Assembly: GCA_023150775.1 (NCBI GenBank)
Contig: JAKLKE010000005.1
Location: 608-64,607 of the forward strand
From: Myxococcota bacterium
GTDB taxonomy: Bacteria; Myxococcota_A; UBA796; CAJQPC01
DNA length: 64,000 nt
Direction of reading: 5' to 3'
Shown: positions 27,693 to 40,518 of the stretch, in pieces
Position numbering within the stretch: the stretch's first letter is position 1
How the letters are laid out: every line of letters starts with the position of its first letter
Made by a program: the position numbers and the translations under genes
The notes under the pieces: generated by a model
Database searches by the model: none
Told to the model about the DNA's origin: nothing
What the model saw: the letters and a program-made list of their open reading frames with translations, nothing else

Positions 27693-28708
27693 GCCAACCT
27701 CACCTCACCCGCTGCGCCGTCTTGGGCGCGGGCTCTTGGGGCACGGCCCTCGCGATGCAGCTCGGGCGCTGCGGCCACGAGGTCTGGCTCTGGGACCACC
27801 GCGCCGACCGCGCCGCCGAGGCCCAGGCCGCCCGGCAGAACCGCCGTTACCTCCCCGGCCGCGCCTTCCCCGACACGCTCACCGTCACCGGGGACATGGA
27901 CTCCGCCTTGGACGACGCCGAGCTCGTCGTCACCGTGGTGCCGTCCCACACCATGCGCTCGGTGATGGCCGCCGCCGCCCCGGCGCTCTCCCCCCGGGCC
28001 ATCGTCTGCTGCGCCTCCAAAGGCATCGAGGAGCAGACGGTCTGCACCATGGACGAGGTGCTGCAGTCGGTCTTGCCCGAGGCGCTGCACGGCCGCATCT
28101 GCGCGCTCTCGGGGCCGAGCTTCGCCGCTGAAGTCGCCAACGACCTCCCCACCGCCGTCGTCGTCGCCGGTCGGGATGACCTCGCCACCCACCGCGTCGC
28201 CGCCGCCTTTCATGGCAGCAACTTCCGGGTCTACACCTCCGACGACCTCATCGGCGTGGAGATCGGCGGCGCGCTCAAGAACGTCATGGCCATCGCCTGC
28301 GGCGTGGCCGACGGCATGGGCCTGGGCCAGAACGCCCGGGCGGGCATCATCACCCGGGGCCTCGCCGAGATCACCCGCCTCGCCGTCTCTCGCGGCGCGA
28401 ACCCGCTCACCTTGGCCGGCCTCGCGGGCATGGGGGACTTGGTGTTGACCTGCACCGGCGACCTCTCCCGAAACCGCCGCGTCGGCATCGCGCTTGGCCA
28501 AGGCCGCACGCTGGAGGCCGTGCTCACTGAGCTGGGTCAGGTCGCTGAGGGTGTGATCACCGCGCGGTCTGCCCGGCAGCTCGGCGAACGTTTAGGCGTA
28601 GAGCTGCCGATCACTGAAGAGATCTACAACATCCTCTACGCGGGCAAACCGTCCGCCCAGGCGATGATGGATCTGCTCGGGCGGCGCCGGAAGGCCGAGC
28701 GCGACTAA
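27689..28708 (+). CDS. gpsA: NAD(P)H-dependent glycerol-3-phosphate dehydrogenase
   Basis: The ATG overlaps the AAA stop (ATGA at 27689-27692). AVLGAGSWGTALAMQL Rossmann motif. GIE..T, GALKNVMAIACG and GDLVLTCTGDLSRNRRVG motifs. Confidence 0.93.
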   Translation: MSQPHLTRCAVLGAGSWGTALAMQLGRCGHEVWLWDHRADRAAEAQAARQNRRYLPGRAFPDTLTVTGDMDSALDDAELVVTVVPSHTMRSVMAAAAPALSPRAIVCCASKGIEEQTVCTMDEVLQSVLPEALHGRICALSGPSFAAEVANDLPTAVVVAGRDDLATHRVAAAFHGSNFRVYTSDDLIGVEIGGALKNVMAIACGVADGMGLGQNARAGIITRGLAEITRLAVSRGANPLTLAGLAGMGDLVLTCTGDLSRNRRVGIALGQGRTLEAVLTELGQVAEGVITARSARQLGERLGVELPITEEIYNILYAGKPSAQAMMDLLGRRRKAERD

Positions 28709-28748
28709 TCCGTTCACACGACGCGCAGGACGCGCGGCAGGAGGGAAG

Positions 28749-29276
28749 GTGCAGATCATGGACGATCGGCTGGATGAGGTGGCGCGAAACCTACGCGCCA
28801 ACCCGATCTTCAAGAGCATGGGCGCCGTGGAGGCCGTGAGCGTGCTCAAGGCGGGCACGACGATGGCCTGCGGCGAGGGCGAGGTGCTCTTCGCCGAGGG
28901 TGACCCCTGCGATGGCTTCTATGTCGTGTTGACCGGGCGTTTTGGGGTGATGGGCGTGCGCGACGGCGAGCCCTTGGCCTTGGCGATCATCGGCCCCGGC
29001 GAGTGCATCGGCGAGATGAGCCTCACCCGGGCCACGCCGCGCTCGGCCACGGTGCGGGCGCTCTCCAACTCCACGGTGTGGCACCTCGCGGGCAGCGTGT
29101 TCGAGACGCTCATCGCCCAGGGCGACACCCGGGCCACCCACATCCTCCAGGGCCTCCAGGTGGAGATCTGCCGTCGTTTTCGCGACGAGCTGATCGTCGG
29201 CGCCGAGCTCGCCGCCCGGGCCTCGGCGGTGGATGAAGGTCGCCTGCTCGTCGAGAGCCTTGGCTGGGAGGTCTGA
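28749..29276 (+). CDS. Stand-alone cyclic-nucleotide-binding (CAP/CNB) domain protein
   Basis: ANPIFKSMGAVEAVSVLKAG..CGEGEVLFAEGDPCDGFYVVLTGRF...GPGECIGEMSL..ATPRSATVRAL is a typical cNMP-binding beta-roll with the phosphate-binding cassette (GE.S....PRSATV). The start is GTG 28749 or ATG 28758. Confidence 0.82.
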   Translation: MQIMDDRLDEVARNLRANPIFKSMGAVEAVSVLKAGTTMACGEGEVLFAEGDPCDGFYVVLTGRFGVMGVRDGEPLALAIIGPGECIGEMSLTRATPRSATVRALSNSTVWHLAGSVFETLIAQGDTRATHILQGLQVEICRRFRDELIVGAELAARASAVDEGRLLVESLGWEV

Positions 29277-29277
29277 G

Positions 29278-29754
29278 ATGATTCACCCCCGTGAGCTCGA
29301 CAACGTCTCCTGCCTCGCCCTGCTCTCCGTCGAGGAGCGCGCCGCCCTGGCCCTGCGCATGATCGAGATCCCCGTCTTGCCCGGCCAAGACATCCTTCGC
29401 GAGGGCAGCCCCAGCTCGGCGGCCTTCGTGCTGCTCGAAGGCCAGCTCTCCGTGCGTAAACGCCTCGTCGTGAACGAGCAGCCCTACGAGCTCCCCGGCA
29501 TCTTGCCCGTGGGCGAGTGGTTCGGCCTCGTCTCCGTGCTCGACGGCTCCCCGGCGAGCGCCCGGGTGCGCGCGGTCACCGCCGCCCGCCTGGGCGCCAT
29601 CGGCAAAGAAGACTTCGAGGCGCTCATCCGCTCCGGCGACCCCGTGGGCCCCAAGCTGCTGCGCGCCTGGCTCAGCTCCATCGCCGACCAGCTCCAGCGG
29701 GTGAACGAGTCCGTGCTCATGCTGCGCCTGTTCTTGGAGCAGAACAAGCTCTGA
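29278..29754 (+). CDS. Second stand-alone cyclic-nucleotide-binding-like domain protein
   Basis: The ATG at 29278 lies 1 nt after the previous stop. LDNVSCLALLSVEERAALALRM..LPGQDILREGSPSSAAFVLLEGQLSV...GEWFGLVSVLDGSPASARVRAV is CNB-like, but the phosphate-binding cassette is degenerate (no PRSA; SPASARV instead). Confidence 0.72.
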   Translation: MIHPRELDNVSCLALLSVEERAALALRMIEIPVLPGQDILREGSPSSAAFVLLEGQLSVRKRLVVNEQPYELPGILPVGEWFGLVSVLDGSPASARVRAVTAARLGAIGKEDFEALIRSGDPVGPKLLRAWLSSIADQLQRVNESVLMLRLFLEQNKL

Positions 29755-29787
29755 GCGACCCGCCCAAGAACCCGTTAGAGGCCCGGC

Positions 29788-30645
29788 ATGGCGATCCCCA
29801 ACGAGACGACCCTCCGCAAGCAGATGATCCAGTTCGGCCGACTGTGCTACGAGCGGCACCTGCTCGTGGCCATGGACGGCAACCTCAGCGCGCGCCTGCC
29901 CGACGGCAACATCCTCTGCACCCAAGCCGGCTGTCACAAGGGCTTCTTGGAGGACGAGCACCTCGTCGTCATCGACCGCCAAGGCAAGAAGCTGCGGGGC
30001 AAAGGCAAACCCACGAGCGAGATGGCCATGCACCTCGCCTGCTACGACGAGCGCCCCGACTGCCTCGCCGTGGTGCACGCCCACCCGCCCATCGCCATCG
30101 CCTTCACCATCGCCAACGTGAGCATGGCCCGCTGTGTTCTGCCCGAGGTCGTGTTGACCTTAGGCACCGTGCCCACCGTCGAGTACGAGACCACCGGCAC
30201 CCAGACCCTCGCGAACCGCATCCGCCCCTACGTTCGCACCCACGACGCCATCCTCATGGACCGCCACGGCGCCGTGTGCCTGGGCACCGACCTGATGGAG
30301 GCGTTCTGCCGTCTGGAGACCTTGGAGCACACCGCGCTCATCACGAAGACCGCCCGTGACCTGGGCGGCGTGAAGGAGCTGCCCCCGGAGGAGGCCGTCA
30401 AGCTGCGGTCCTTGGGGCTCAAGCGGTATGGCGGGCCGCCCCTCTCCGTGTCCAAAGCGGACGCGCCGGGGGCGGACTTGCCTGAGGCGTGTTTGACGTG
30501 CTCGGGCTGTGGGAACCCGAGCCCTCAGGGGATCGCGCCCAAGTCGGAGATGAAGTTGGCGCGGCTGGTGGAGACGCAGGCCGGGCAGACGACGCGGCTG
30601 GAGCAGATCATCGCGGAGGAGATTGGGCGGGCCTTGGGGCGGTGA
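29788..30645 (+). CDS. Class II aldolase/adducin-family protein with ~70-aa C-terminal extension
   Basis: FGRLCYERHLLVAMDGNLSARL..., GKPTSEMAMHLACY and AVVHAHPP (metal-binding His cluster) are typical of fuculose-1-phosphate aldolase-like enzymes. The extension contains CLTCSGCGN and a terminal amphipathic helix RLEQIIAEEIGRAL. Confidence 0.85.
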   Translation: MAIPNETTLRKQMIQFGRLCYERHLLVAMDGNLSARLPDGNILCTQAGCHKGFLEDEHLVVIDRQGKKLRGKGKPTSEMAMHLACYDERPDCLAVVHAHPPIAIAFTIANVSMARCVLPEVVLTLGTVPTVEYETTGTQTLANRIRPYVRTHDAILMDRHGAVCLGTDLMEAFCRLETLEHTALITKTARDLGGVKELPPEEAVKLRSLGLKRYGGPPLSVSKADAPGADLPEACLTCSGCGNPSPQGIAPKSEMKLARLVETQAGQTTRLEQIIAEEIGRALGR

Positions 30646-30805
30646 CGGCGCAACGCCGCACAGATGAGCTTCACCCCCGCAGGCGTCTCAGGGCGACAGG
30701 GCGCGAGTCTTGGCGCCTGCGCGCTCACCGAGGACGACGGCGCGTTTGAGCGGGGCAGAGCTTAATCGTGGAGAGGCTGCCAACCTGAGATTGGAGCATC
30801 GGCCT

Positions 30806-31363
30806 ATGGAGACCCTGATCCCTCCTGAGCGTCTTGAGACCCCGACCTTTGTGCTGAGGTCTTACCAGCTGGGCGACGGGCCGCTGCTCGCCGCGGCCAC
30901 AAACGCCTCCTATGAGCACCTGCGCACGTTTATGCGCTGGTCGCGCCCCCACACCACAGAGGCCGAGGCCGAGGTACACGCCCGGCACTTTCGCGGCCGC
31001 TGGCTTCTATCCCAAGACTTCAGCGTGGCGATCGTGTCCCCCGATGGCCAGCGGCTCTTGGGGAGCACGGGCTTTCACCCCCGCTCAGGCGGCCTTGAGA
31101 CGCGTCGTGTGGAGGTGGGCATGTGGATTCGCGCCGACGAGGCGGGGCGGGGTCTCGGCGCCGAGGTGCTGCGGGTGATGCTGCGGTGGGGCTTCAGCGA
31201 CTGGCCTTGGGAGGAGCTGATCTGGCGGACGGCGCCGGAGAACGTGGCCAGCCAGCGCACCGCGCGGCGCGTCGGCCTGGTGGAGCACGAGACCCCAGAC
31301 CCAGATGGGATGCGGCGGTTTCATCTGTCGCGGGGCGCCTTTGGGGGAGGCGCTGTCGGGTGA
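30806..31363 (+). CDS. GNAT-family N-acetyltransferase (RimJ/RimL-like)
   Basis: Start at METLIPPERLETPTFVLRSY. VEVGMWIRADEAGRGLGAEVLRVMLRWGF (motif A, R-x-x-G-x-G). APENVASQRTARRVGL. Confidence 0.8.
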   Translation: METLIPPERLETPTFVLRSYQLGDGPLLAAATNASYEHLRTFMRWSRPHTTEAEAEVHARHFRGRWLLSQDFSVAIVSPDGQRLLGSTGFHPRSGGLETRRVEVGMWIRADEAGRGLGAEVLRVMLRWGFSDWPWEELIWRTAPENVASQRTARRVGLVEHETPDPDGMRRFHLSRGAFGGGAVG

Positions 31364-31364
31364 G

Positions 31365-31559
31365 GCGCCGAGCTGCGGTGGGCCGCCCCACGCGCTGCAA
31401 TTGGAGCTGCGGGTGCAGGCGGCGCGGGCGGCCTTGGCCCGGGGGGCCGCCGGGGCCGAGCTCGCCACGGAGCTGGGCTTCTTTGACCAGAGCCACTTCA
31501 GCCGGCACTTCAAACGGATCGTCGGGGTGACGCCGAGCCAGTACGCCCAGGCCTGCTGA
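31365..31559 (+). pseudogene. Remnant of an AraC/XylS-family transcriptional regulator (C-terminal HTH only)
   Basis: The translated fragment ...GGPPHALQLELRVQAARAALARGAAGAELATELGFFDQSHFSRHFKRIVGVTPSQYAQ matches only the end of HTH1, the linker helix and HTH2 of AraC-type DNA-binding domains. No sensor domain or HTH1 lies upstream. It abuts the GNAT 3' end. Confidence 0.55.
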
Positions 31560-31653
31560 GCGCAAAGCGAAGGTTCAGGACGTACAAGACGCCGGGCGGG
31601 GCCCGGGGGCAGAGTGGGCGCGACGACACGCCCCGCTCCCACCCGATCCCCCG

Positions 31654-32376
31654 ATGCCCGCCGTGAAGCCCGACCTGTACCTCTTCGGCTCGACCAGCGA
31701 GATCCTGCGCCAGCTCGTGCGTGAGCACCGCGACTGGATTCAGGCGAACACCCGCCGCGTCATCGTCTCCCAGCGCGGCGAGGTGCCCGCGGAGTACGAC
31801 GGCCTGATCTACGCCTCCGTCCCCCTGGACTGCGCCGAGCCCCGGGCTCTCCGCCAAGGGCTCACAAAGCTCATCGCCGAGCATGTGGAGCCCGGGCACC
31901 CGAACCTCGTGATGTCCACCTACGGCAAGCTCTCCTGGGATTACGCGCCCAAGAGCCCCTGCTTCCGGTTCAGCGACGAGGGATACCAGGTGAACCTCGT
32001 CTCGCGGCTGCAGCTCCTCGACGCCTTCAGGCCCCACGCCGCGACGACGCGGTTTCACCTGTTCGGCTCGTTGTTCGCCAACTTCCCGTACTTGGGGGAC
32101 TACGCCCTGAGCATGTGGGCGGTGAACCAGCTCCCCCTGAGCCCGGAGTACCGCGACTTAAACCTCATCGTCACGAACATTGGCGGGTGCAAGACGCGGT
32201 TCTGGGACCATACGTCGATGGGCACGAGCCACCCGTTTATGCACCAGGAGGTGCCGACGACGGCGCTGTTTGAGGCGGTGTTTCTGTCGGAGCAGCGTGG
32301 GGTGGTGACGTTTTATCCGTCGGTCGGCGCGCGGATTGGGTGCGCGCTGGGGCGGATGGGGGTGCGGGTGTTGTGA
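31654..32376 (+). CDS. Rossmann/SDR-like hypothetical protein with non-canonical motifs
   Basis: 240 aa. LYLFGSTSEILRQLV sits where TGxxxGIG is expected. GDYALSMWAVNQL sits where YxxxK is expected (K replaced by M). NIGGCKTRFW resembles the PG..T segment. The 3' third is strikingly G-rich. Confidence 0.55.
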   Translation: MPAVKPDLYLFGSTSEILRQLVREHRDWIQANTRRVIVSQRGEVPAEYDGLIYASVPLDCAEPRALRQGLTKLIAEHVEPGHPNLVMSTYGKLSWDYAPKSPCFRFSDEGYQVNLVSRLQLLDAFRPHAATTRFHLFGSLFANFPYLGDYALSMWAVNQLPLSPEYRDLNLIVTNIGGCKTRFWDHTSMGTSHPFMHQEVPTTALFEAVFLSEQRGVVTFYPSVGARIGCALGRMGVRVL

Positions 32377-32434
32377 GGGGCGGTGGCGGGTGGTTTATGC
32401 TCTGCGCTGTGTGACCCCTCGCCCACCGCCCAGG

Positions 32435-33196
32435 ATGGCCCCGATGTTTGCTTACCCCGCGAGCCCGAGCTCCGAGCAGCTCCATGACCTACAAGCCCGG
32501 CTCGGCGTGACCTTCCACGACGAGGCGCTGCTCCTCCAGGCGCTCACGCATCGGTCTTGGGTTGAGGAGGCCGCCCGGGGTGGCCTCGCGTTGGCCCACC
32601 AGTCTTACGGGCGCCTCGCGTTCTTGGGGGACGCGAAGCTGGGAGAGGTCGTCGCGCGGACCTTGTTCGCGGCGCACCCAACGGCGTTGGAGGGGGGCCT
32701 CACCCGCGCCGCTGAAGTGTTTAAGTGTGAGGGCTGGCTCATCGCGAAGGGTAAGGAGCTGGGCCTCGGTGACCTGATGCGGGTGGGGCGCGGCGCAGAG
32801 GTGAACCTCCAAGGCCACTACAAGGTGATCGAGCACTCCATGGAGGCGGTGCTGGGCGCCTTGGTCGCCGATGGACAGGGCGACGCCGTGGAGCGCATCG
32901 TGGCCGGCTGGATCAACAACCACACGTCGCTGCTTCATTACATGCAATCCACCGACAACTGCTCCAACCCCGTCGGCGCGTTCAACGAGCTCTACCAGCG
33001 GCTCAAGCGCATAAGCGCCCCGGCGCCAGAAGCGTGGTCCGAGGGGACTCCTCAGGACCTGAGCTGGCATGTGCGCATTGATCTGACGGACATCGGCCTC
33101 GGCGTGTATCTCGGCGCAGGCAGAAGCAAGAAGCGAGCAAAGTTCGAAGCGCTCAGCGCGGCCTACCCAGACGCTGTCGCACATGGCCTCCTCTAA
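32435..33196 (+). CDS. RNase III homolog (RNase III domain + dsRBD-like C-terminus) with substituted catalytic residues
   Basis: LQARLGVTFHDEALLLQALTHRSW, then GRLAFLGDAKL (signature ERLEFLGD with both Glu replaced), IEHSMEAVLGAL (the D of DxxEA replaced by H), and a C-terminal NPVGAFNELYQRL...GAGRSKKRAKFEALSAAY dsRBD-like motif. Collinear with E. coli Rnc. Confidence 0.8.
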   Translation: MAPMFAYPASPSSEQLHDLQARLGVTFHDEALLLQALTHRSWVEEAARGGLALAHQSYGRLAFLGDAKLGEVVARTLFAAHPTALEGGLTRAAEVFKCEGWLIAKGKELGLGDLMRVGRGAEVNLQGHYKVIEHSMEAVLGALVADGQGDAVERIVAGWINNHTSLLHYMQSTDNCSNPVGAFNELYQRLKRISAPAPEAWSEGTPQDLSWHVRIDLTDIGLGVYLGAGRSKKRAKFEALSAAYPDAVAHGLL

Positions 33197-33269
33197 GGGG
33201 TCGCCCCCCTCACCTCCCGCTTGTGTCCCCCTTCCCCCTGGGTTACGGCCCCGCCCCGAGAGGTGCTGT

Positions 33270-34406
33270 GTGACCCCAGACTGGAGCCTGCTCGCGCCCC
33301 ACCGGCCCGTCGATTCCGGCGGGGATCAGTATGTGCCGCCCCCCTCCAACATCGGCGAGGCCATGGCGCGGTGGGCGCTCGCCTCGGGCGCGCCCGTGCT
33401 CGTCGGCGGGCCCACGGGCGTCGGCAAGAGCACCGAGCTGGCCCAGGCCGCCGCGCAGCTTCAGTCAGATCGCGCCGTCTGCCTGATTCAGCTTGACCGG
33501 CTGGAGAACATGCGGCGGCTGGAGCCTGAGCGGATGCTCAGCCGGGTGGCGCAGCTCGTCGGGCAGCCGCGTGGTGGCGCGGGTCAAGGCGTGAGCGTGT
33601 CCGACGTCGCAAAGGGGGTCGCCGCGCTTGGCAGCGCGCTCACCATTGCGTCGGCTGTAGGCGCGGCGGCGCACGTCCTCGCCAGCTTAGACACCCAGCT
33701 CCCTCCCGCCGACGCCGCCCTCTCCTCCGTCCGCGCCCTGGCCCGCCTCACCGGGCGCCGCGTCGCCCTGCTCATCGACGGCTTAGAGAAGGTGCCCGAC
33801 GGCGCCCAGGCGCGGGCGCTGTTTGACGTGCTGCGGCCTCTGGCGGAGGAGGCTGATCTGATCGCCGTCGCCCCCTGGAGCCTCGCCTTTGGCGCCGAGG
33901 CGAACGAGCCCTTGGTGAGGCAAGGCGAACGATTCTTCTTTGTGCGGGCCCCCGAGGTGGAGCCCGTCGAGACCGCGCCGGGGCTGCCCTTCCTCCTCCA
34001 TCTCTTGGAGCGACGCCTCCAGATCGGCGACATGCGGCGCCAGACCCCCGCGGGCTTTGGCCCGATCTTCCGAGACGCCGCCGTGGCCAGCGGCGGGCTG
34101 CCCCGCGTGTTCTTGCAGCTCATCGCCGACTGCGCCACCTACGCGCGCTTGCACCGAGACGCCGACTGGCCCGAGCTCTCCGATCTTGAAGACGCCATGG
34201 CCGACCAACGCGACGGGATGCGGCGCGGGCTCTTGCCCAAAGACCTCAAGCTCATCCAGTGGGTAGACGGCACCCCAGGGTTGGACCTGGCGATCGACGC
34301 CAAGGTGCGGCTCTTGGCGCATGGCCTCTTGCTGGAGCGCGTGACGCCAGCGGGTGTTGTGCTGCGGCCTCACCCCCTGCTGCGCCCCCTCTTGCGCGAG
34401 GCTTGA
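33270..34406 (+). CDS. P-loop NTPase, ORC/Cdc6- or STAND-like ATPase with C-terminal helical/winged-helix-like region
   Basis: Walker A LVGGPTGVGKSTEL. Walker B-like RVALLIDGLEKV. SGGLPRVFLQLI lid-like motif. The GTG at 33270 is preceded by GAGAGG; the alternative ATG at 33183 overlaps the RNase III-like gene by 14 nt, but its first 29 codons have poor GC3. Confidence 0.7.
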   Translation: MTPDWSLLAPHRPVDSGGDQYVPPPSNIGEAMARWALASGAPVLVGGPTGVGKSTELAQAAAQLQSDRAVCLIQLDRLENMRRLEPERMLSRVAQLVGQPRGGAGQGVSVSDVAKGVAALGSALTIASAVGAAAHVLASLDTQLPPADAALSSVRALARLTGRRVALLIDGLEKVPDGAQARALFDVLRPLAEEADLIAVAPWSLAFGAEANEPLVRQGERFFFVRAPEVEPVETAPGLPFLLHLLERRLQIGDMRRQTPAGFGPIFRDAAVASGGLPRVFLQLIADCATYARLHRDADWPELSDLEDAMADQRDGMRRGLLPKDLKLIQWVDGTPGLDLAIDAKVRLLAHGLLLERVTPAGVVLRPHPLLRPLLREA

Positions 34407-34409
34407 GTC

Positions 34410-34952
34410 ATGCGGGACAGCGTGAACGCCATCTGGAGCGCGCTCCAGCAGCCCCCGCTCGTCGTCGTGCTCTACGACGATTATGGACTCCTGGAGAGCG
34501 CCCAGGAGGAGGTGGCCTCGATCGCGAACCCGAGCTGGCCTGTGCGCCGGGTCTCTACGGTTGAGGACGCCCTGAGCACCTCCGCCGACACCTTGGCGCT
34601 CTTGGCGCCGGTCGACGAGGTGGCCACCATCGAGGAGCTGGACGGCGGACGAGATCGTTTTGTGGAGCGCGCCGTGCCCGTGGTCGTGTTCTTACTGCGC
34701 GGGGGCGCTGGAGAGCGCGCCTTGACCCAAGCGCCGAGCCTGCTGAGCTGGGTGCGCGGCAACCTGATCGATCCCAGCGCGCAAGACCCCTTCGACCCCG
34801 ACGCCGCTCGCGAAGAGTTCATCCGCCACGCGGGCCGCACGCCTGAGGAGTGGCTAATGATGCGGCGCCGCGGGGAGCTCGACGGATCGCCTGAGTCTCT
34901 CGGCCTCACCTACCGCGCCTTGTTGTTGGAAGGGCCTGATGATCTGGCGTGA
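34410..34952 (+). CDS. Hypothetical protein (alpha/beta pattern), operon member
   Basis: 180 aa. The ATG lies 3 nt after the upstream stop. Alternating hydrophobic strands (LVVVLY, TLALLAP, VPVVVFLL) and helices. Clear coding periodicity. No family recognised. Confidence 0.6.
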   Translation: MRDSVNAIWSALQQPPLVVVLYDDYGLLESAQEEVASIANPSWPVRRVSTVEDALSTSADTLALLAPVDEVATIEELDGGRDRFVERAVPVVVFLLRGGAGERALTQAPSLLSWVRGNLIDPSAQDPFDPDAAREEFIRHAGRTPEEWLMMRRRGELDGSPESLGLTYRALLLEGPDDLA

Positions 34953-35514
34953 GCTTGTCGATCAGCACGACGCGGCGCGGGAGCGCGGCTATCCCAAGGT
35001 CGAGATGGAGCTACGCAAACGGGTCGCTTGGCTCGCGGAGCGTGGTCACTGCTCGCGCGTGTACCAAGGGAGGCTCAGCGACAAGACCAAAGACAAACGC
35101 TCCAGACGAACCCAGGTCATGATCAAGGGCGAACAATCCCCCATCGGCGACCCGATCCCGCTCCTCAACCTGCCCAACGTCGAGCACCCGAAGCTCTGGA
35201 TCTACGCGCTCCTTGACGACCACGACAAGCGCCTGCTCAAGTTCACCGTTCGTCTCGACGCCCGGTGGGCCGCTGACAAGGTCCCGTTCACGATCTCCGT
35301 GGAGCTTGACGATCGAACCATGGGCAGCGGGGCCTGCGGTCACCCGATCTTGCACTGCCATATGGGCGTCGATCACGACCGCCGACCGCAGTTTCGCCTG
35401 CCGCTGCCCGCGCTCACGCCTTGGGAGGCGCTTGACTGGCTGATCACGCAGCTCGATGAGGCCCACGAGCCCGCACCCTGGACCGCGCCGATGTTCTCCC
35501 GGGCTGCTCCTTAG
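34939..35514 (+). CDS. Hypothetical protein with His/Cys cluster, operon member
   Basis: 191 aa. The ATG overlaps the upstream gene by 14 nt. Basic segment KTKDKRSRRTQ. Cluster GACGHPILHCHMGVDHD. No family recognised. Confidence 0.6.
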   Translation: MIWRELVDQHDAARERGYPKVEMELRKRVAWLAERGHCSRVYQGRLSDKTKDKRSRRTQVMIKGEQSPIGDPIPLLNLPNVEHPKLWIYALLDDHDKRLLKFTVRLDARWAADKVPFTISVELDDRTMGSGACGHPILHCHMGVDHDRRPQFRLPLPALTPWEALDWLITQLDEAHEPAPWTAPMFSRAAP

Positions 35515-35587
35515 ACGTGCGGATTCGTGCAGGTCGTCGCCAAAGGTCGTCTTGTGCAGGCCTGGAGAGGCGAGGCACAACGCCCCC

Positions 35588-37105
35588 TCACCTCCCCGCC
35601 ACCCACCACGCCGCCCCGCCCTGCGCCGCGAGGTCCGGCGGCCCCAACCGCGCCGTCACCTCCTCCACAAACGCCTCGCGCACCACCACCGCGCCCACCC
35701 CCGCCTCGGCGAGCCCAGCCCAAGACGGCGCCTCCGGTGGGCGGGCGCCGCGCGGCAAGGCCAAGGTGTTGAGCCAGCGCGCGGTGGGATCGTCCCGCAG
35801 CTCACCCAGGTCACCGGGGCGGTTTGGCGAGAGGCGTAGCGGGCGGCCATGGGCGCGCTGCTCGTAGAGCGGGCGCTGGGTGTGAACGCCGGGGCCCGCC
35901 AGCGGCAGCGGCAGCACGGCGCCGGGCACAGCCTTGAGGGCCGACCACAGCGGGTCAATGTGCGCCGAGGTCGTCGGCAAAGGCAGCGGCGTGGGCGACA
36001 AGAGGCTCAGCTCAAGGGCGATCAAGAGCGCCAGCGCCGTCTGAACCCGGCCCTCTTTGCCGGGCCAGCGCGCAGCCACGGTGACCGCGCCCCGGGCGGC
36101 CAAGGCGGCCAGGGCGAGCTGCCCGATCAACATCACCCGGGCGTGGTGGTTCAACAGCTCGGCGCCGGGCAAGAGGCGAAGGAGCCGCACCGCCGGGTTG
36201 TCGAGGCCCAGGGGCTCCCCCATCAAGCTCAGGCGCGGCCCTGCGGCGAGGGCCATCGCCGCGACGAGCGCGATCCAGAGCGGGTGACGCCCGCCGATCA
36301 GCGCCAACACCAAGGGCACGACGCCCAGGGCGGTCGGGTGAATCCGCATCAGCGCGCCCTCGGGGGGCTGGGCCTCACCGACGGCGACGAAGGAGGCCAG
36401 ATCGGCGCCACGCCAAGGGTTGAGGCGCCACGCGGGCTCGGGCTGCTCCATCGGGGCGCCGCTGCGGTGACCCTCGCCGCCGAGGCGGGTGGCGTGGCTC
36501 CACGCGGCGGGGGCGGCCAAGGCCAAGGCGAGCAAGGCGGCGGACAGCCAGCGGCCCAGACGCGCGGGCCTGCGCCAGAGGTCAACGAGGCCCAAGACGA
36601 CCGCGCCCAGAGCGCCCAAGGCCCCGAGCACCAAGCCGCTCGCGGCGGTGAGGCCCAAGAGCGCGCCACCGAGCAGGCTCATCCCAAAACCTTCGCCGAG
36701 GAGCGCGGCATAGGCCAAGGCGAGCAGGCCCAGCCCAGCGTCTTCGCTGAGGCCTGAAGACAAGGAGCCCAAGAGCGGCGGGGAGAGCGCGACGAGCACC
36801 CCGGCCACCGCAGGGGCGCCGCCGACCCGACGACCCAGGGCCGCGCCGCCGACATAGGCCAAGGCGACGGCGCCCAGCACCAAGGCGTTCCAGGCCGAGA
36901 CGGCGCCGAGCACACGGCTCAAGACAGCGACGGTCAAGGTGGTCAGAGGGTCGATGACCGGCCAGGGCTCGGCGCCCAAGGCGAGGTCTGTGCCTGAGGG
37001 CCAGGCGGGCAGAGCCTCGGCGTGCCAATGGATCACCCAGAGGTGGCCGAAGAGCTCGCCGCCCTCGTGGCCTAAGAAGAGCCCGGGGCGCAGGCCCGAG
37101 CCCAC
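35588..37105 (-). CDS. Polytopic membrane protein of unknown function
   Basis: 505-aa ORF, Gly/Ala/Leu-rich, with about 10 hydrophobic segments and a C-terminal soluble region. GC3 bias supports the minus frame. The N-terminus is uncertain (see finding). Confidence 0.65.
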   Translation of the reverse strand: MGSGLRPGLFLGHEGGELFGHLWVIHWHAEALPAWPSGTDLALGAEPWPVIDPLTTLTVAVLSRVLGAVSAWNALVLGAVALAYVGGAALGRRVGGAPAVAGVLVALSPPLLGSLSSGLSEDAGLGLLALAYAALLGEGFGMSLLGGALLGLTAASGLVLGALGALGAVVLGLVDLWRRPARLGRWLSAALLALALAAPAAWSHATRLGGEGHRSGAPMEQPEPAWRLNPWRGADLASFVAVGEAQPPEGALMRIHPTALGVVPLVLALIGGRHPLWIALVAAMALAAGPRLSLMGEPLGLDNPAVRLLRLLPGAELLNHHARVMLIGQLALAALAARGAVTVAARWPGKEGRVQTALALLIALELSLLSPTPLPLPTTSAHIDPLWSALKAVPGAVLPLPLAGPGVHTQRPLYEQRAHGRPLRLSPNRPGDLGELRDDPTARWLNTLALPRGARPPEAPSWAGLAEAGVGAVVVREAFVEEVTARLGPPDLAAQGGAAWWVAGR

Positions 37106-37152
37106 CAGCGCGGCGCAGGCGAAGGCACCCAGCGCGAGGGCGGCTCGGGAGA

Positions 37153-37815
37153 TCAGAGCACCTGGCTCAAGAAGAGGCGGCGATCCGTCGTCACCTGGCC
37201 GTCGATGCGGCGGGAGTGGACCTCCATGTACACGCCGATGTCCTGAAAACCCCGCTTGAGGTACATGTCGTAGCCCGCGTGGCGCGTGGCGGACGTGCGC
37301 AGCAGGACGTGGCTGTACTTGGCGCGGTTGATCATCTCTAGGCGCAGGCGGATCAGCTCCCCGCCGAGGCCGAGGCCCCGGACCTTGTTGAGCATCCCCA
37401 GCTCGGAGAGGTAGTAGGTCGGCTGAATCGGCAGCAGACCTTGGACCTCTCGGGCCACGTCTTTGCGGTGCGCCAGCGGCACCGCGAAGCCAAAGCCCAC
37501 CACGGTGATGCCCCGCACGGCCAACAAGGCGATGTGGTCTGGCGTCTGGAGCGTGCGCGCCAGGACCCCTTCGGCCTCGTAGGGGTAAAAGAGCTCGTTG
37601 TACGGCGGCTCAGAGAAGATGGTCTGGTACGCCCCCACGAAGGACGGGCGGTAGACCGCGGCCTCTTGCTCGTCGTGAAGGCGAATGATGTCGATGTCGG
37701 CGATTTTGGTGAGGTGCTGCACAGCCGCCAAGTATGCCTCAGAGGGAAGGGGCGCGAGAGGAGGTGGTTGGATCTCTCGCACAAAATTGTGCGTTTGGGG
37801 AGGGCAAATGGGCAA
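37153..37815 (-). CDS. GNAT-family acetyltransferase
   Basis: LLAVRGITVVGFGFAV..., YLSELGMLNKVRGLGLGGELIRLRL (motif A) and GYDMYLKRGFQ (motif B). The start is TTG 37815 or GTG 37782. Confidence 0.7.
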   Translation of the reverse strand: MPICPPQTHNFVREIQPPPLAPLPSEAYLAAVQHLTKIADIDIIRLHDEQEAAVYRPSFVGAYQTIFSEPPYNELFYPYEAEGVLARTLQTPDHIALLAVRGITVVGFGFAVPLAHRKDVAREVQGLLPIQPTYYLSELGMLNKVRGLGLGGELIRLRLEMINRAKYSHVLLRTSATRHAGYDMYLKRGFQDIGVYMEVHSRRIDGQVTTDRRLFLSQVL

Positions 37816-37861
37816 GGATCGTGAGGCGGCGAGGCGGGCGGGGGTGGCGCGGGCTGGCCCC

Positions 37862-38932
37862 TCACCCCACCCCCTCGTCGTCGTCCTCCACGGCCCCGCC
37901 GACGCCCTCGTCTACGACCGGCGCGGACTCGGGCTCCTCCGGGCGCTGGCGGCGCTGGCCGCGCAGCTCCAGAAGGCGCGACTGCAGCAAGGCCCCGGGC
38001 TCACCCAAGGCGCGGCACTGGGACAAGGCGTCGAGCAGGGTGGCGGCCTCGGCCTCGGGATCCTCAAGGCCTCGGGCTTGGGCGAGGTCGATGGACGCCG
38101 AGGCGAAGGCGAGCCAGCTTCGGCGCTCTAAGGCGAGGGCCTGGCAGCTCGCGGCGAGGGGGCCCGCGCGGCGCCCGTCGCCCTCGGCCAAGGCGAGGCC
38201 GCTCAGCAAGAGCCCCGCCGTGAGGCGTAAGGCCGGCTCCCCCTCCACCCACACCGCGTTGAGCAGGGGCGCGGCGTGGCGGGGCAGGCCGTGGCGCAGG
38301 AGGCTCAGGGCGCGGATCAGCGCCACACGGGCGGCCAGCGACAGGTCTTGGAAACTCTGCGCGAGGGCCTGGGCTCGGGCGTAGGCGCCGTCGGCCTCGC
38401 GCCAGCGGGCGTCACGCTCCAAGGCCTCACCCAGCGCCAACCAGCCGTCGTGCTCTTCGCGGCGGCGGCTCACCGGGCCGGGCTCGGCCAAGGCGCGCTG
38501 GAGGCTGGAGGTGGCGCCCTCCAAGCGCAGGGCGGCGCGGGCGAGGCCCCGGGTGAGCTGGGTGGCGGGGAAATGTTCGGCGTCGCGGTCAGCGCGCTCC
38601 ATCAAGGCCCGGGCGTCGGCCACGCTGCCGAGCTCGGCCAAGGCCCGCACACACCACAGCCGGGCGTGGGCGTCCCGCTCGGCGTCGCCCAAGGCCATCG
38701 CCCGGCGAGAGGCCTCGGCGAAGGTGGCCGCGGCCTCTTCGTGACCGAGCACGAGCTGGCGTTCGCCCCGGCGGATCAAGGCGCGCACGGCGAGCGGCGC
38801 GTCGGGGGCGCGGCCCAAGGCCTGCACCAGAGCGGCGTCGAGGGTCGTGGCCTCGGCGAGCGCTGGGCCGAAGGGCGGCAGGGCCTCCAGGGCGTCGGTG
38901 AGGGCCGTGGCCTGGGAGGGGGTCTGGCTCAT
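37862..38932 (-). CDS. Ala/Leu/Arg-rich helical-repeat (TPR-like) protein
   Basis: 356 aa. The ATG overlaps the upstream stop (ATGA on the minus strand at 38932-38929). Repeated ...A.A..L.G....A...ARA helix pairs. Acidic C-terminal tail. Confidence 0.6.
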   Translation of the reverse strand: MSQTPSQATALTDALEALPPFGPALAEATTLDAALVQALGRAPDAPLAVRALIRRGERQLVLGHEEAAATFAEASRRAMALGDAERDAHARLWCVRALAELGSVADARALMERADRDAEHFPATQLTRGLARAALRLEGATSSLQRALAEPGPVSRRREEHDGWLALGEALERDARWREADGAYARAQALAQSFQDLSLAARVALIRALSLLRHGLPRHAAPLLNAVWVEGEPALRLTAGLLLSGLALAEGDGRRAGPLAASCQALALERRSWLAFASASIDLAQARGLEDPEAEAATLLDALSQCRALGEPGALLQSRLLELRGQRRQRPEEPESAPVVDEGVGGAVEDDDEGVG

Positions 38933-40518
38933 GCGCCCCCCGTCGCGGTCAAGGCGACCCGGCCCACGGCGCCGAAGCAGCTCTCCCGCACCAACAGGAG
39001 GCGCTCGCTCCAGCGGCGTAAGGCGGCCTCAGCGTCGTGAAGGCTGGGCTCGGCGTCGTCCATGGGCTCGCCGACGAGGTTCTCCAGGCGGCGGCCGACC
39101 CGGATGGACTCTCGGGCGATCTCGCGGAGCTCCTCGTCCACGGCGCGGAGGATGGCGCGCAGGCGGGTCTGCACCGGGGCCCCGGCGGCGCGTAGGGCGG
39201 CGATGGCGGCGCAGGCGGCCTCGGCCTGGGCGCGGCCGGCGCTGCCCACGAGCGTCTCGATGCTGTCGATGAGCGGCTGGAGCTGATCGGGCTCCAGATG
39301 GGTGAGCACCTCTTCGCCTTGGCCGATCAGCTCGGCGAAGATGGCGTCGAAGGCCGCGGTCTGGGCGTCGATGGTGAGGTCGCCGCTGTGGTGGCGGGCC
39401 ATCGACTGCGGCGGGCGCACGGGCCAAGGCTTCACGACGTGGTCGATGGCGGCGTCGAGGAGGCCCTGGGCGCGGCGGCCGGGGGCGGGGCCACGGGCGG
39501 CGCGGCCCGGCGTCGGGGGCAGCTCGCCGCGCACAGCCTCGTCAAAGATGAAGTGCGCCGCGAGGCGGCTGCGCTGGGCGCAGATGTGGGCGGCGGCGCG
39601 GCCTTGGCGGCGGGCGTCACGCTCTAAAGCGATCGTCGCCGCCTGGTTGACCGCGGCGAGCTCCACCCGCTCGGCCTCGATCACCAAAGCCAAGGTGCCC
39701 AAGGCCCCGCCCCGGGCGACCTGGGCGGCGAGGCCCGGCCCCCCGGCGGTGGGGCCCAAGAGGCGCCCCATGGCGCGGGCGAGGGGGTCTTGGGCGGCGC
39801 CGCTCAAGAACTGGCCGAGCTCCATCACCACGACGAGGCCCTCGGGGGCGAGGGTGAGGTCTTCGGGCTCCGGGTCCCAGTCCGCGTGCTCCACGGGCTC
39901 CTGCAGCCAGCCCCAGACGGCGTCGAGGCGCTCGTCGCCTTGGGGGGCCTCGGGGTGGTTCAGGGGCGGCAGCTCGTCTAAGTAGATCGTCTCTTCGTCG
40001 TCGTCGTCGGACTTGAGCTTGTCCTGGGCCATGCCGAAGCCGGTCTGGGCCTGGGCGCGGCGGAAGGCGCGGCGTTTGGGGTTGACCGGGGGCGGGTCCG
40101 CGTCGTCGTCGCCGCCGAACTGCTGGTCGTAGTCGGCGCCGGCGCCTCCGCCGGCCTCGGTGCCTTGGCCCGCGGACTGCGGCGCGCCCATGCTGGAGGA
40201 GAACGCGGCCTCTAGCCCCTCGTCCCAGCCCTCGTCCTCCTCTTGTTCTTGCTCCTCCTCTTGCTCTTGCTCCTCGACCTGCTCCACCTCGATCGCCGGG
40301 CCCTCTTGGCGGCCCACGTCGCGGAGCATCTTCGCCAAGGCCGCGTTGCCGACCTGGGCGGCCAGGGCGCGGGCGTTCTCTGGGGAGACCTGGGAGTCGG
40401 GGCCCTGGATCTCTTGTTGCAGCTCTTGGGCCGTCTTCTTGTCGGGGACGACCTCGGGCGCCTTCTTCTGCAGCTCGGCGACGAGCTCGCGGCGCGCCTG
40501 ACGGGACGTGTTGGACAA
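38929..40518 (-). CDS. Hypothetical protein with acidic low-complexity N-terminal region
   Basis: The track ORF starts at GTG 40557. The TTG at 40518 is preceded by GGAGG. It contains the ARALAAQVGNAALAKMLR motif, the acidic tract EQVEEQEQEEEQEQEEDEG and a helical C-terminal ~300 aa. No family recognised. Confidence 0.6.
   Translation of the reverse strand: MSNTSRQARRELVAELQKKAPEVVPDKKTAQELQQEIQGPDSQVSPENARALAAQVGNAALAKMLRDVGRQEGPAIEVEQVEEQEQEEEQEQEEDEGWDEGLEAAFSSSMGAPQSAGQGTEAGGGAGADYDQQFGGDDDADPPPVNPKRRAFRRAQAQTGFGMAQDKLKSDDDDEETIYLDELPPLNHPEAPQGDERLDAVWGWLQEPVEHADWDPEPEDLTLAPEGLVVVMELGQFLSGAAQDPLARAMGRLLGPTAGGPGLAAQVARGGALGTLALVIEAERVELAAVNQAATIALERDARRQGRAAAHICAQRSRLAAHFIFDEAVRGELPPTPGRAARGPAPGRRAQGLLDAAIDHVVKPWPVRPPQSMARHHSGDLTIDAQTAAFDAIFAELIGQGEEVLTHLEPDQLQPLIDSIETLVGSAGRAQAEAACAAIAALRAAGAPVQTRLRAILRAVDEELREIARESIRVGRRLENLVGEPMDDAEPSLHDAEAALRRWSERLLLVRESCFGAVGRVALTATGGA

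Follow-up and report, generated by a model that had tools for sequence, protein, structure and literature searches.

An accessory RNase III paralog with a degenerate catalytic centre in a variable genomic island of Myxococcota

Introduction

Ribonuclease III (RNase III) domains that have degenerated and act without cutting are known from eukaryotes, where they are found in editosomes and mitoribosomes. To our knowledge, which is not exhaustive, no bacterial class-1 paralog has been described that is maintained while its active site decays, and targeted literature searches on inactive bacterial RNase III paralogs and on Myxococcus RNase III, a check that was likewise not exhaustive, found nothing specific. 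The gene described here is a candidate for such a paralog. It lies at positions 32444-33196 on the plus strand of a stretch of 64,000 nucleotides from a Myxococcota bacterium (GenBank assembly GCA_023150775.1, contig JAKLKE010000005.1, positions 608 to 64,607; the whole stretch is called the window below) and encodes a protein of 250 amino acids. Our preferred reading, to which we give about an even chance of being right, is that this is an accessory, lineage-specific class-1 RNase III paralog that would bind double-stranded RNA (dsRNA) as a dimer and cleave it poorly or not at all.

The closest described system is the canonical enzyme Rnc (TIGR02191), represented by the proteins of Escherichia coli, Aquifex and Thermotoga maritima. 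The window protein resembles Rnc in its architecture, in being collinear with it from end to end, in its best sequence and fold matches and in its predicted symmetric dimer. It differs in that Rnc has the carboxylates E38, E41 and D114 (core positions are given in E. coli numbering) and is linked to era, whereas the window paralog is limited to one genus and evolves fast. In E. coli, the D45A mutant is inactive in vivo and has low activity in vitro, and E117K, E117A and E117Q are inactive yet bind dsRNA (PMC8708148, Table 1). Compared with the E. coli point mutants at E38, E41 and D114, the window protein has lost carboxylates at the same positions, but here three are lost at once and by natural evolution, one of them to His.

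Two eukaryotic cases offer further comparison. KREPB4 and KREPB5 of the trypanosome editosomes have an RNase III domain without catalytic residues, are essential and have been proposed to serve as the non-catalytic half of a dimer (PMC5648035). Tandem copies of the paralog in relatives of this bacterium, referred to as type A and type B, invite a similar idea of pairing between enzyme and pseudoenzyme. On the other hand, KREPB4 and KREPB5, which belong to eukaryotic mitochondria, have zinc-finger and PUF motifs but lack a dsRNA-binding domain (dsRBD), whereas the window protein, which is of type B, keeps D45 and E117. The loss of these two residues that would mark a pseudoenzyme is not seen, since the protein has their equivalents, D66 and E137, and type B shows no variation at either position. 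The mitoribosomal protein mL44 (Pfam RM44_endonuclease) makes structural use of RNase III-like and dsRBD-like domains without catalysis. The RM44_endonuclease match to the window protein is weak (25 bits, under the cut-off of 27) and mitoribosome chains are among the Foldseek matches, but the window protein is no more similar to this eukaryotic ribosomal protein than to any other RNase III.

The nearest outgroup is a family of paralogs with the signature 'PGG...(Q/N)QRLEFLGDA' (alignment A4). The family and the window clade have in common an insert before the signature and an E-D/H pair in the second motif; they differ in that the A4 family is recognised by the Pfam profile dsrm, and in that the window clade has undergone further residue losses.

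A class-1 RNase III homolog beside a canonical rnc

A preliminary description of this DNA had placed the gene at 32435-33196. There is indeed an open reading frame (ORF) at that place, part of a longer plus-strand ORF that spans 32336-33196, but translation more likely begins from the ATG at 32444 than from the one at 32435: the homologs all begin with MF(A/V)YP, the sequence AGGA stands 8 nt upstream, and database gene calls for the relatives are 250 amino acids long. (Residue numbers below are those of P0001, the 253-residue version that starts from the upstream ATG at 32435 and reads MAPMF....) A promoter and terminator scan gave nothing above chance, and an Rfam search of window positions 28000-39000 gave no match. 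One contig of 165 nt from a wastewater metatranscriptome (run X17) equals window positions 33043-33207 with zero mismatch, which is a weak hint of transcription.

As in other class-1 RNase III homologs, one nuclease domain is followed by one dsRBD. Membership in the superfamily is clear from PF14622 (Ribonucleas_3_3; 63.3 bits, cut-off 35, E=3e-17) and PF00636 (Ribonuclease_3; 38.4 bits, cut-off 27). The TIGR02191 model aligns over positions 1-216 of 219, with a score of 104.3 bits that falls short of the curated equivalog cut-off of 166.25. This end-to-end alignment, together with HMMER alignments to solved RNase IIIs, bears out the earlier statement that the protein is collinear with E. coli RNase III. 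In the AlphaFold2 (AF2) model, which has a mean predicted local distance difference test score (pLDDT) of 90.7, both domains are folded. The nuclease-like domain (P0001 residues 29-160, window 32519..32914, plus strand; Pfam Ribonucleas_3_3) has the all-helical RNase III fold, matching 3o2r_B with a template modelling (TM) score of 0.87 and a root-mean-square deviation of 1.8 Å, and 2a11 with a TM score of 0.81 (Foldseek, nuclease domain); Foldseek ranks bacterial RNase III structures at the top. Unlike Rnc, the protein has a conserved MFxYPxSPS extension at its N-terminus and, ahead of the signature, a longer insert, 'EE..GG..H.S'.

The dsRBD-like C-terminal domain (residues 179-249, window 32969..33181, plus strand) is predicted to be alpha-beta-beta-beta-alpha, with block pLDDT values of 96-98 at residues 181-240 and about 85 toward the C-terminal end, and carries SKKRAK, a motif of the KKxAK type. 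The C-terminal dsRBD expected of an Rnc is therefore present by AF2 prediction and by this motif, and the dsRBD-like C-terminus reported earlier holds up, even though Pfam dsrm is blind to it.

A TIGR02191 search of the 7.0-Mb assembly found two loci, the window gene and a gene on contig C107. The C107 protein, of 262 amino acids, scores 211 bits, above the cut-off, has the motifs NERLEFLGD and ADAFEALLG, and is encoded directly upstream of era. The window gene is 33% identical to this canonical rnc and belongs to a separate clade, with a support of 98 in the Shimodaira-Hasegawa-like approximate likelihood ratio test (SH-aLRT). The rnc-era linkage, which is common though not universal, is absent at the window gene; its neighbours are an SDR-like gene on one side and the NTPase cassette of an insertion on the other. 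These comparisons support the proposal in the preliminary description that the window gene is a paralog and not the housekeeping processing enzyme; the second, canonical rnc that it had suggested looking for is present, and housekeeping processing would be handled by this resident rnc-era gene. The window gene should not be annotated as "ribonuclease III", the name that some sources give its relatives.

Three substitutions in the catalytic centre

The two catalytic motifs were read from HMMER alignments to the solved enzymes of T. maritima (1o0w), E. coli (7r97) and Mycobacterium tuberculosis (2a11). The degenerate signature YGRLAFLGD (window 32606..32632, plus strand) aligns on N-E/A-(K/R)-LEFLGD, and EHSMEAV of the second catalytic motif EHSMEAVLG (window 32831..32857, plus strand) aligns on AD(A/T)xEAL. 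From E. coli to P0001, E38 corresponds to G59, E41 to A62, D45 to D66, D114 to H134 and E117 to E137; the equivalent of E65 is also retained, as is the 'ball' Phe of the signature helix (F63). Of the three carboxylates in the Rnc signature (N)ERLEFLGD, the sole one retained is D45, and the second motif keeps E117 and has His for D114. The same substitutions in both motifs had been proposed from an alignment by eye, and the HMMER alignments, together with alignments of 19 to 231 sequences, show that this alignment was not shifted.

How unusual are these changes? As a background, 231 homologs of 190-310 amino acids were aligned and seven acidic positions were read, 202 of the sequences lying outside the clade and its parent family. 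At the E38 position Glu is found in 160 of the 202 (Gln in 37, Asp in 3, Ala in 2) and never the Gly of this gene. The E41 position is Glu in 200 and Ala, as here, in 2. Asp at the D45 position and Glu at the E117 position are universal (202/202 each), and this gene conforms at both. The D114 position is naturally variable, with Asp in only 130 sequences (Asn in 42, Ala in 8, Gly in 8, Ser in 6, Arg in 3), and so does not strictly define the family; the His of this gene was not found there in any of the 202 homologs. Judged by these frequencies, the changes of E38 to Gly and E41 to Ala are the strong anomalies and truly unusual. None of the other sampled homologs combines three substitutions in this way.

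Two side observations concern the same positions. In two genomes of the same family, what appears to be the only rnc gene is of the canonical kind and has, at the D114 position, Gly in one (G009:C194, locus L008, motif VLAGAVEAV) and Asn in the other (G018:C109, locus L010, motif LLANALEAV). An unrelated metagenomic protein, P0035 (224 amino acids), reads AARLAFLGDA, with Ala at both E38 and E41 and Glu at D114, which makes it a second, independent degenerate signature.

In structures of the Aquifex enzyme, the first Mg2+ is bound by the equivalents of E41 and D114 together with E117, and E38 acts in the outer sphere. With the first-Mg2+ ligands E41 and D114 replaced by Ala and His, and the outer-sphere E38 by Gly, the two-metal centre would be weakened. 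A homodimer of the RNase III type would still form and dsRNA binding would be retained, with poor cleavage or none, and the role of the protein could be to bind or mask dsRNA, or to cut it very slowly or selectively. Inactivity of the window protein is likely. The preliminary description had spoken of a protein that is catalytically dead or has altered chemistry, and weakened catalysis is favoured by the three substitutions and by the stepwise loss traced below. Altered chemistry, with a His at a metal site, may apply. "Dead" says more than can be read from the residues, because the protein keeps two essential carboxylates, D45 and E117, and each of the changed positions tolerates substitution when taken singly.

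Residue losses in the clade and the question of catalysis

The close relatives of the window protein form about 16 protein clusters at 40-85% identity. Among 41 related genomes the paralog is limited to the genus of the window, with two copies in genome G001 and one in G003; none was found in G002, which is 90% complete. Other genera have weaker matches alone (E of 4e-25 or weaker), mostly one per genome. Plasmid and phage searches with tblastn and a scan of IMG/VR viral contigs returned distant RNase IIIs only, of at most 38% identity, and no link to mobile elements. Near-identical sequence (79-95% of sampled words) is present in wastewater and activated-sludge assemblies from ten studies beyond the two possible source studies.

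The 16-cluster clade is monophyletic (SH-aLRT 100) and nested in the 'PGG..H.SQQRLEFLGDA' paralog family, apart from canonical rnc (SH-aLRT 98). In this parent family, ten of the twelve members sampled keep E41, D45, D114 and E117, E38 being most often Gln; the exceptions are P0125, with Asn at D114, and P0140, with Ala at E41 and Thr at D114. Within the clade, P0122 (the type-B copy of G001) and P0012 retain all four core residues and stand outside the well-supported derived group. Further members show the change of E41 to Ala alone, to which the subgroup of the window gene adds the change of D114 to His. Of the 13 type-B clusters, 10 have Ala and 3 have Glu at E41; at D114, 7 have His, 4 have Asp and 2 have Asn. 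Type A is the sister of the His-bearing subgroup (SH-aLRT 95), and its losses go furthest: all three copies are without E41, D114 and E117, two of them (P0014 and P0124) are without D45 as well, and type A also lacks the 'ball' Phe of the signature helix. A type-A copy was not found in the 94.5% complete assembly of the window's own genome with the type-A protein of the metagenomic locus L017 as query.

This series of losses indicates relaxed constraint on catalysis, and it argues that the family has a function with which efficient catalysis is compatible but for which it is not required. The family would then have kept a selectable function after catalysis was weakened. The clade as a whole forms a natural series, from an intact to a fully lost core, that could separate the residues needed for binding from those needed for cleavage.

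Several points weigh against the reading of the window protein as a dsRNA-binding dimer that cleaves poorly or not at all. The series by itself does not prove that the member in the window is dead. In E. coli, the single mutants E38A, E41A and D114A retain weak activity when Mg2+ is in excess (PMC8708148, Table 1). At the D114 position, 36% of the other homologs have a residue other than Asp, otherwise canonical ones included, and motif print-outs show Asn, Ala, Ser or Gly there in enzymes whose NERLEFLGDA is perfect. The two residues whose loss does most damage in E. coli, D45 and E117, do not vary in any of the 13 type-B clusters and drift in type A only, which fits continued metal binding or catalysis. 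As to binding, the C-terminal domain has no match to Pfam dsrm, and loop 2 of the dsRBD, GPxH, reads GTPQD with the His lost; with a dsRBD that also evolves faster, dsRNA binding by the window protein is not assured. Support for transcription consists of the single contig from one RNA library mentioned above, the other RNA-labelled runs being probably DNA.

The points on the active site speak at the same time for a protein that still works as an endonuclease, with altered metal use or lower turnover. Here D66 and E137 would hold one metal and H134, with E133 beside it, would replace the lost carboxylates; perhaps Mn2+, Co2+, Zn2+ or another transition metal is favoured, or the substrate set is narrower. 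This account also draws on the fixation of His at D114 in six of six clusters of the closest subgroup, plus P0013, and on the signature helix, which is the most conserved block of the protein. However, a role in the dimer interface explains the conservation of this helix equally well, the near-universal Glu at E41 is lost here along with two other acidic residues, and type A has been retained despite the losses of its core residues, which argues that the function of the family needs no catalysis. We consider a working enzyme of this kind somewhat unlikely.

Selection and the predicted dimer

Selection on the paralog is purifying but relaxed, and the gene is maintained. Compared with its ortholog in L017 (77% amino acid identity), the ratio of nonsynonymous to synonymous substitution rates (dN/dS) is 0.32 at a dS of 0.43, and 0.24 over the first 130 codons. 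The membrane protein gene on the right flank has a dN/dS of 0.12-0.13 (0.12 at a dS of 0.33), and the aldolase gene on the left flank, compared with that of G001, has 0.05 (dS 0.21). Within type B, mean entropy is 0.57 in the nuclease domain, 1.07 in the dsRBD and 1.76 in the linker; 55 of the 132 nuclease-domain positions are invariant, and LAFLGDAKLG is the least variable block of ten residues (entropy 0.16).

The same figures bear on whether the gene is a duplicate that has lost its function and is turning into a pseudogene. A dN/dS above that of the flanks would be expected of such a gene, as would the stepwise loss of catalytic residues, the failure to find the paralog in the sister genome G002 at its 90% completeness, the frameshifts and stops in the G003 copy, and a G+C content at third codon positions of 0.83 compared with 0.90-0.93 in the core neighbours. 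But the ratio lies well under 1, in the first 130 codons most of all; all but one of the 16 aligned clusters have full-length intact ORFs, over a range of 40% to 85% identity, and intact ORFs are present in at least 13 clusters of type B; and neither the number of invariant positions in the nuclease domain nor the high-confidence fold of the AF2 model is what a decaying gene should show. We regard the pseudogene account as improbable. (The status of the G003 copy as a pseudogene was not relied on, since its 'tig' contig names suggest a long-read assembly, in which the frameshifts may be errors, and the intact P0010 matches it.)

The paralog also changes abruptly between close relatives. Between G003 and L017 the flank has about 97% nucleotide identity, but the paralog itself has only 60-77%, and the change comes sharply at its stop codon (L016 8834-9700 compared with L017 6590-7400). 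This indicates either allele replacement or very fast divergence at a single gene. Evolution so much faster than that of the flanks, in an island that itself changes fast, suggests a role in conflict or in a niche-specific process.

The prediction of a homodimer gave a score of 0.80, compared with 0.12 for the best control; at least 76% of contacts are common to the runs, and the partner pLDDT is at least 79. Of 30 proteins whose solved structures are pairs of one chain, 20 reach the mark used for a homodimer, as does 1 of 23 whose solved structures are single chains. The predicted interface comprises residues 54-93 and runs through the signature helix, with F63 in a socket of the partner, an arrangement like that of solved RNase III dimers. 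The pass may merely reflect likeness to complexes that have already been solved, and not binding.

An inserted NTPase cassette in a variable island

The paralog lies in a variable island that extends from a class II aldolase gene on the left to the gene for a 505-residue membrane protein on the right, and the gene content between them is different in every genome compared. The aldolase gene (29788..30645, plus strand; Pfam Aldolase_II) has 98% amino acid identity to that of G001. The membrane protein gene (35588..37105, minus strand), convergent with the paralog, forms the right border in four genomes and has 91-95% amino acid identity to its counterparts in G001, G003 and L017. In the window, the order within the island is a GNAT gene, an AraC remnant, the SDR-like gene p240, the paralog, an NTPase gene and two small ORFs.

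The NTPase gene and the small ORFs belong to a lineage-specific insertion of about 2.36 kb (33219..35581, plus strand), which is absent in L017, G001 and G003; in these three, the stop of the paralog abuts the stop of the membrane protein gene, without the cassette. The probable start of the STAND-like NTPase places it at 33363-34406 (plus strand), with weak matches to AAA_16, nSTAND5 and mads_8, and it is followed by ORFs of 180 amino acids (p180, 34410-34952, plus strand) and 191 amino acids (p191, 34939-35514, plus strand). The insertion is flanked by a 15-bp direct repeat, GCCCCCTCACCTCCC, the left copy of which lies at 33204..33218; the right copy, at 35582..35596, overlaps the stop codon of the membrane protein gene on the minus strand. 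The cassette carries no recombinase of its own.

Four same-strand genes in tight spacing could be taken for an operon of the defence type, in which the paralog comes first and acts, perhaps as dsRNA sensor or effector, in concert with the NTPase and both small proteins. The weak STAND and mads_8 matches of the NTPase would fit this arrangement, as would the presence of a Septu system in the island of the sister genome G001 and the recurrence of the junction between paralog and NTPase in independent wastewater assemblies. (The insertion-free junction, 33218-35582, was found on no contig in four runs, but contigs cannot show absence.) However, the three downstream genes are the insertion itself: because it is absent in G001, G003 and L017 and bracketed by the direct repeat, the NTPase genes are a later insertion and a secondary juxtaposition, not a conserved operon partner. 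A long version of the NTPase ORF overlaps the stop of the RNase III gene, but since it begins outside the insertion, this overlap probably does not mark a real start. The paralog, moreover, has no PADLOC model match. An operon of this kind seems to us quite unlikely.

Relation to defence systems

Within the window, the weak STAND-like NTPase is the only defence-like neighbour, and a PADLOC search gave no match for the paralog (E<=0.1), p240, p180 or p191. In G001, a complete Septu system (L015 3076-5285, on G001:C101; PtuA 354 bits, PtuB 187 bits) lies just upstream of the type-A paralog.

Extra copies of the A4 type are sporadic and accessory, being found in a handful of about 400 Myxococcota genomes. 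One of them, whose core is intact, is found in G034:C394 (L043 4719-14006, L174 991-7172), flanked by DrmD (1055 bits) on one side and DrmMI (1235 bits) on the other. The G034 locus is a full class-1 DISARM, with DrmA (in two ORFs), DrmB and DrmC downstream and with Schlafen/AlbA_2 and capP/RmrA-like genes nearby. No neighbours are shared by the parent-family copies: a giant SIR2-domain protein is encoded about 2 kb away in G303, secreted and outer-membrane proteins in G040 and an SDR in G247, and the G040 and G247 paralogs have no defence context.

The link of the paralog family to defence is suggestive. Taken further, defence islands of Myxococcota may have taken up RNase III as a component that diversifies, with an active form in DISARM and, descended from it, a genus-specific lineage, often in tandem A and B copies, whose catalytic centre has decayed, its dimer being a dsRNA sensor or clamp or, with one active subunit, a single-strand nickase against the RNA of phages or mobile elements. 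We offer this as speculation and think it more probably wrong than right by a wide measure. If it were true, the drop in identity over the paralog, from about 97% to 60-77%, would be allele turnover in an arms race. The variable island, which holds defence genes in a sister genome, provides a testable lead for dsRNA recognition in bacterial conflict systems.

Other genes of the island

Upstream of the paralog, p240 (31654..32376, plus strand) encodes an SDR-like protein of 240 amino acids, an 81% identical copy of which stands upstream of the type-B paralog in G001. It has no Pfam match; an ESM-Atlas feature search points to SDR families with a score of 0.97, which is a lead only. The gene is absent beside the paralog copies in L017. 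Further upstream is the remnant of an AraC-family regulator (31305..31559, plus strand), which according to the ORF translation comprises the C-terminal helix-turn-helix (HTH) only. At the matching place, G001 has a full regulator of 288 amino acids (HTH_18 and AraC_binding) and L017 has an AraC_binding fragment.

The island of L017, a metagenomic sequence, contains this AraC fragment and adjacent type-A and type-B copies. The tandem copies are about 100 nt apart (L017 5791-7400, L018 7153-8399), and D45 is kept in this type-A copy; L017 and L018, which have identical copies, are probably from one organism. Such a tandem may encode a heterodimer, pairing an enzyme with a pseudoenzyme or two pseudoenzymes.

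In G001 the island consists of Septu, the type-A copy, a duplicated 3' end of the aldolase gene, the full AraC gene, p240 and the type-B copy. The duplication, a second copy of the last 65 or so aldolase codons with 94% amino acid identity, comes right after the type-A copy (L015 7266-7460, on G001:C101) and resembles a scar left behind by an element upon its integration into the 3' end of the aldolase gene.

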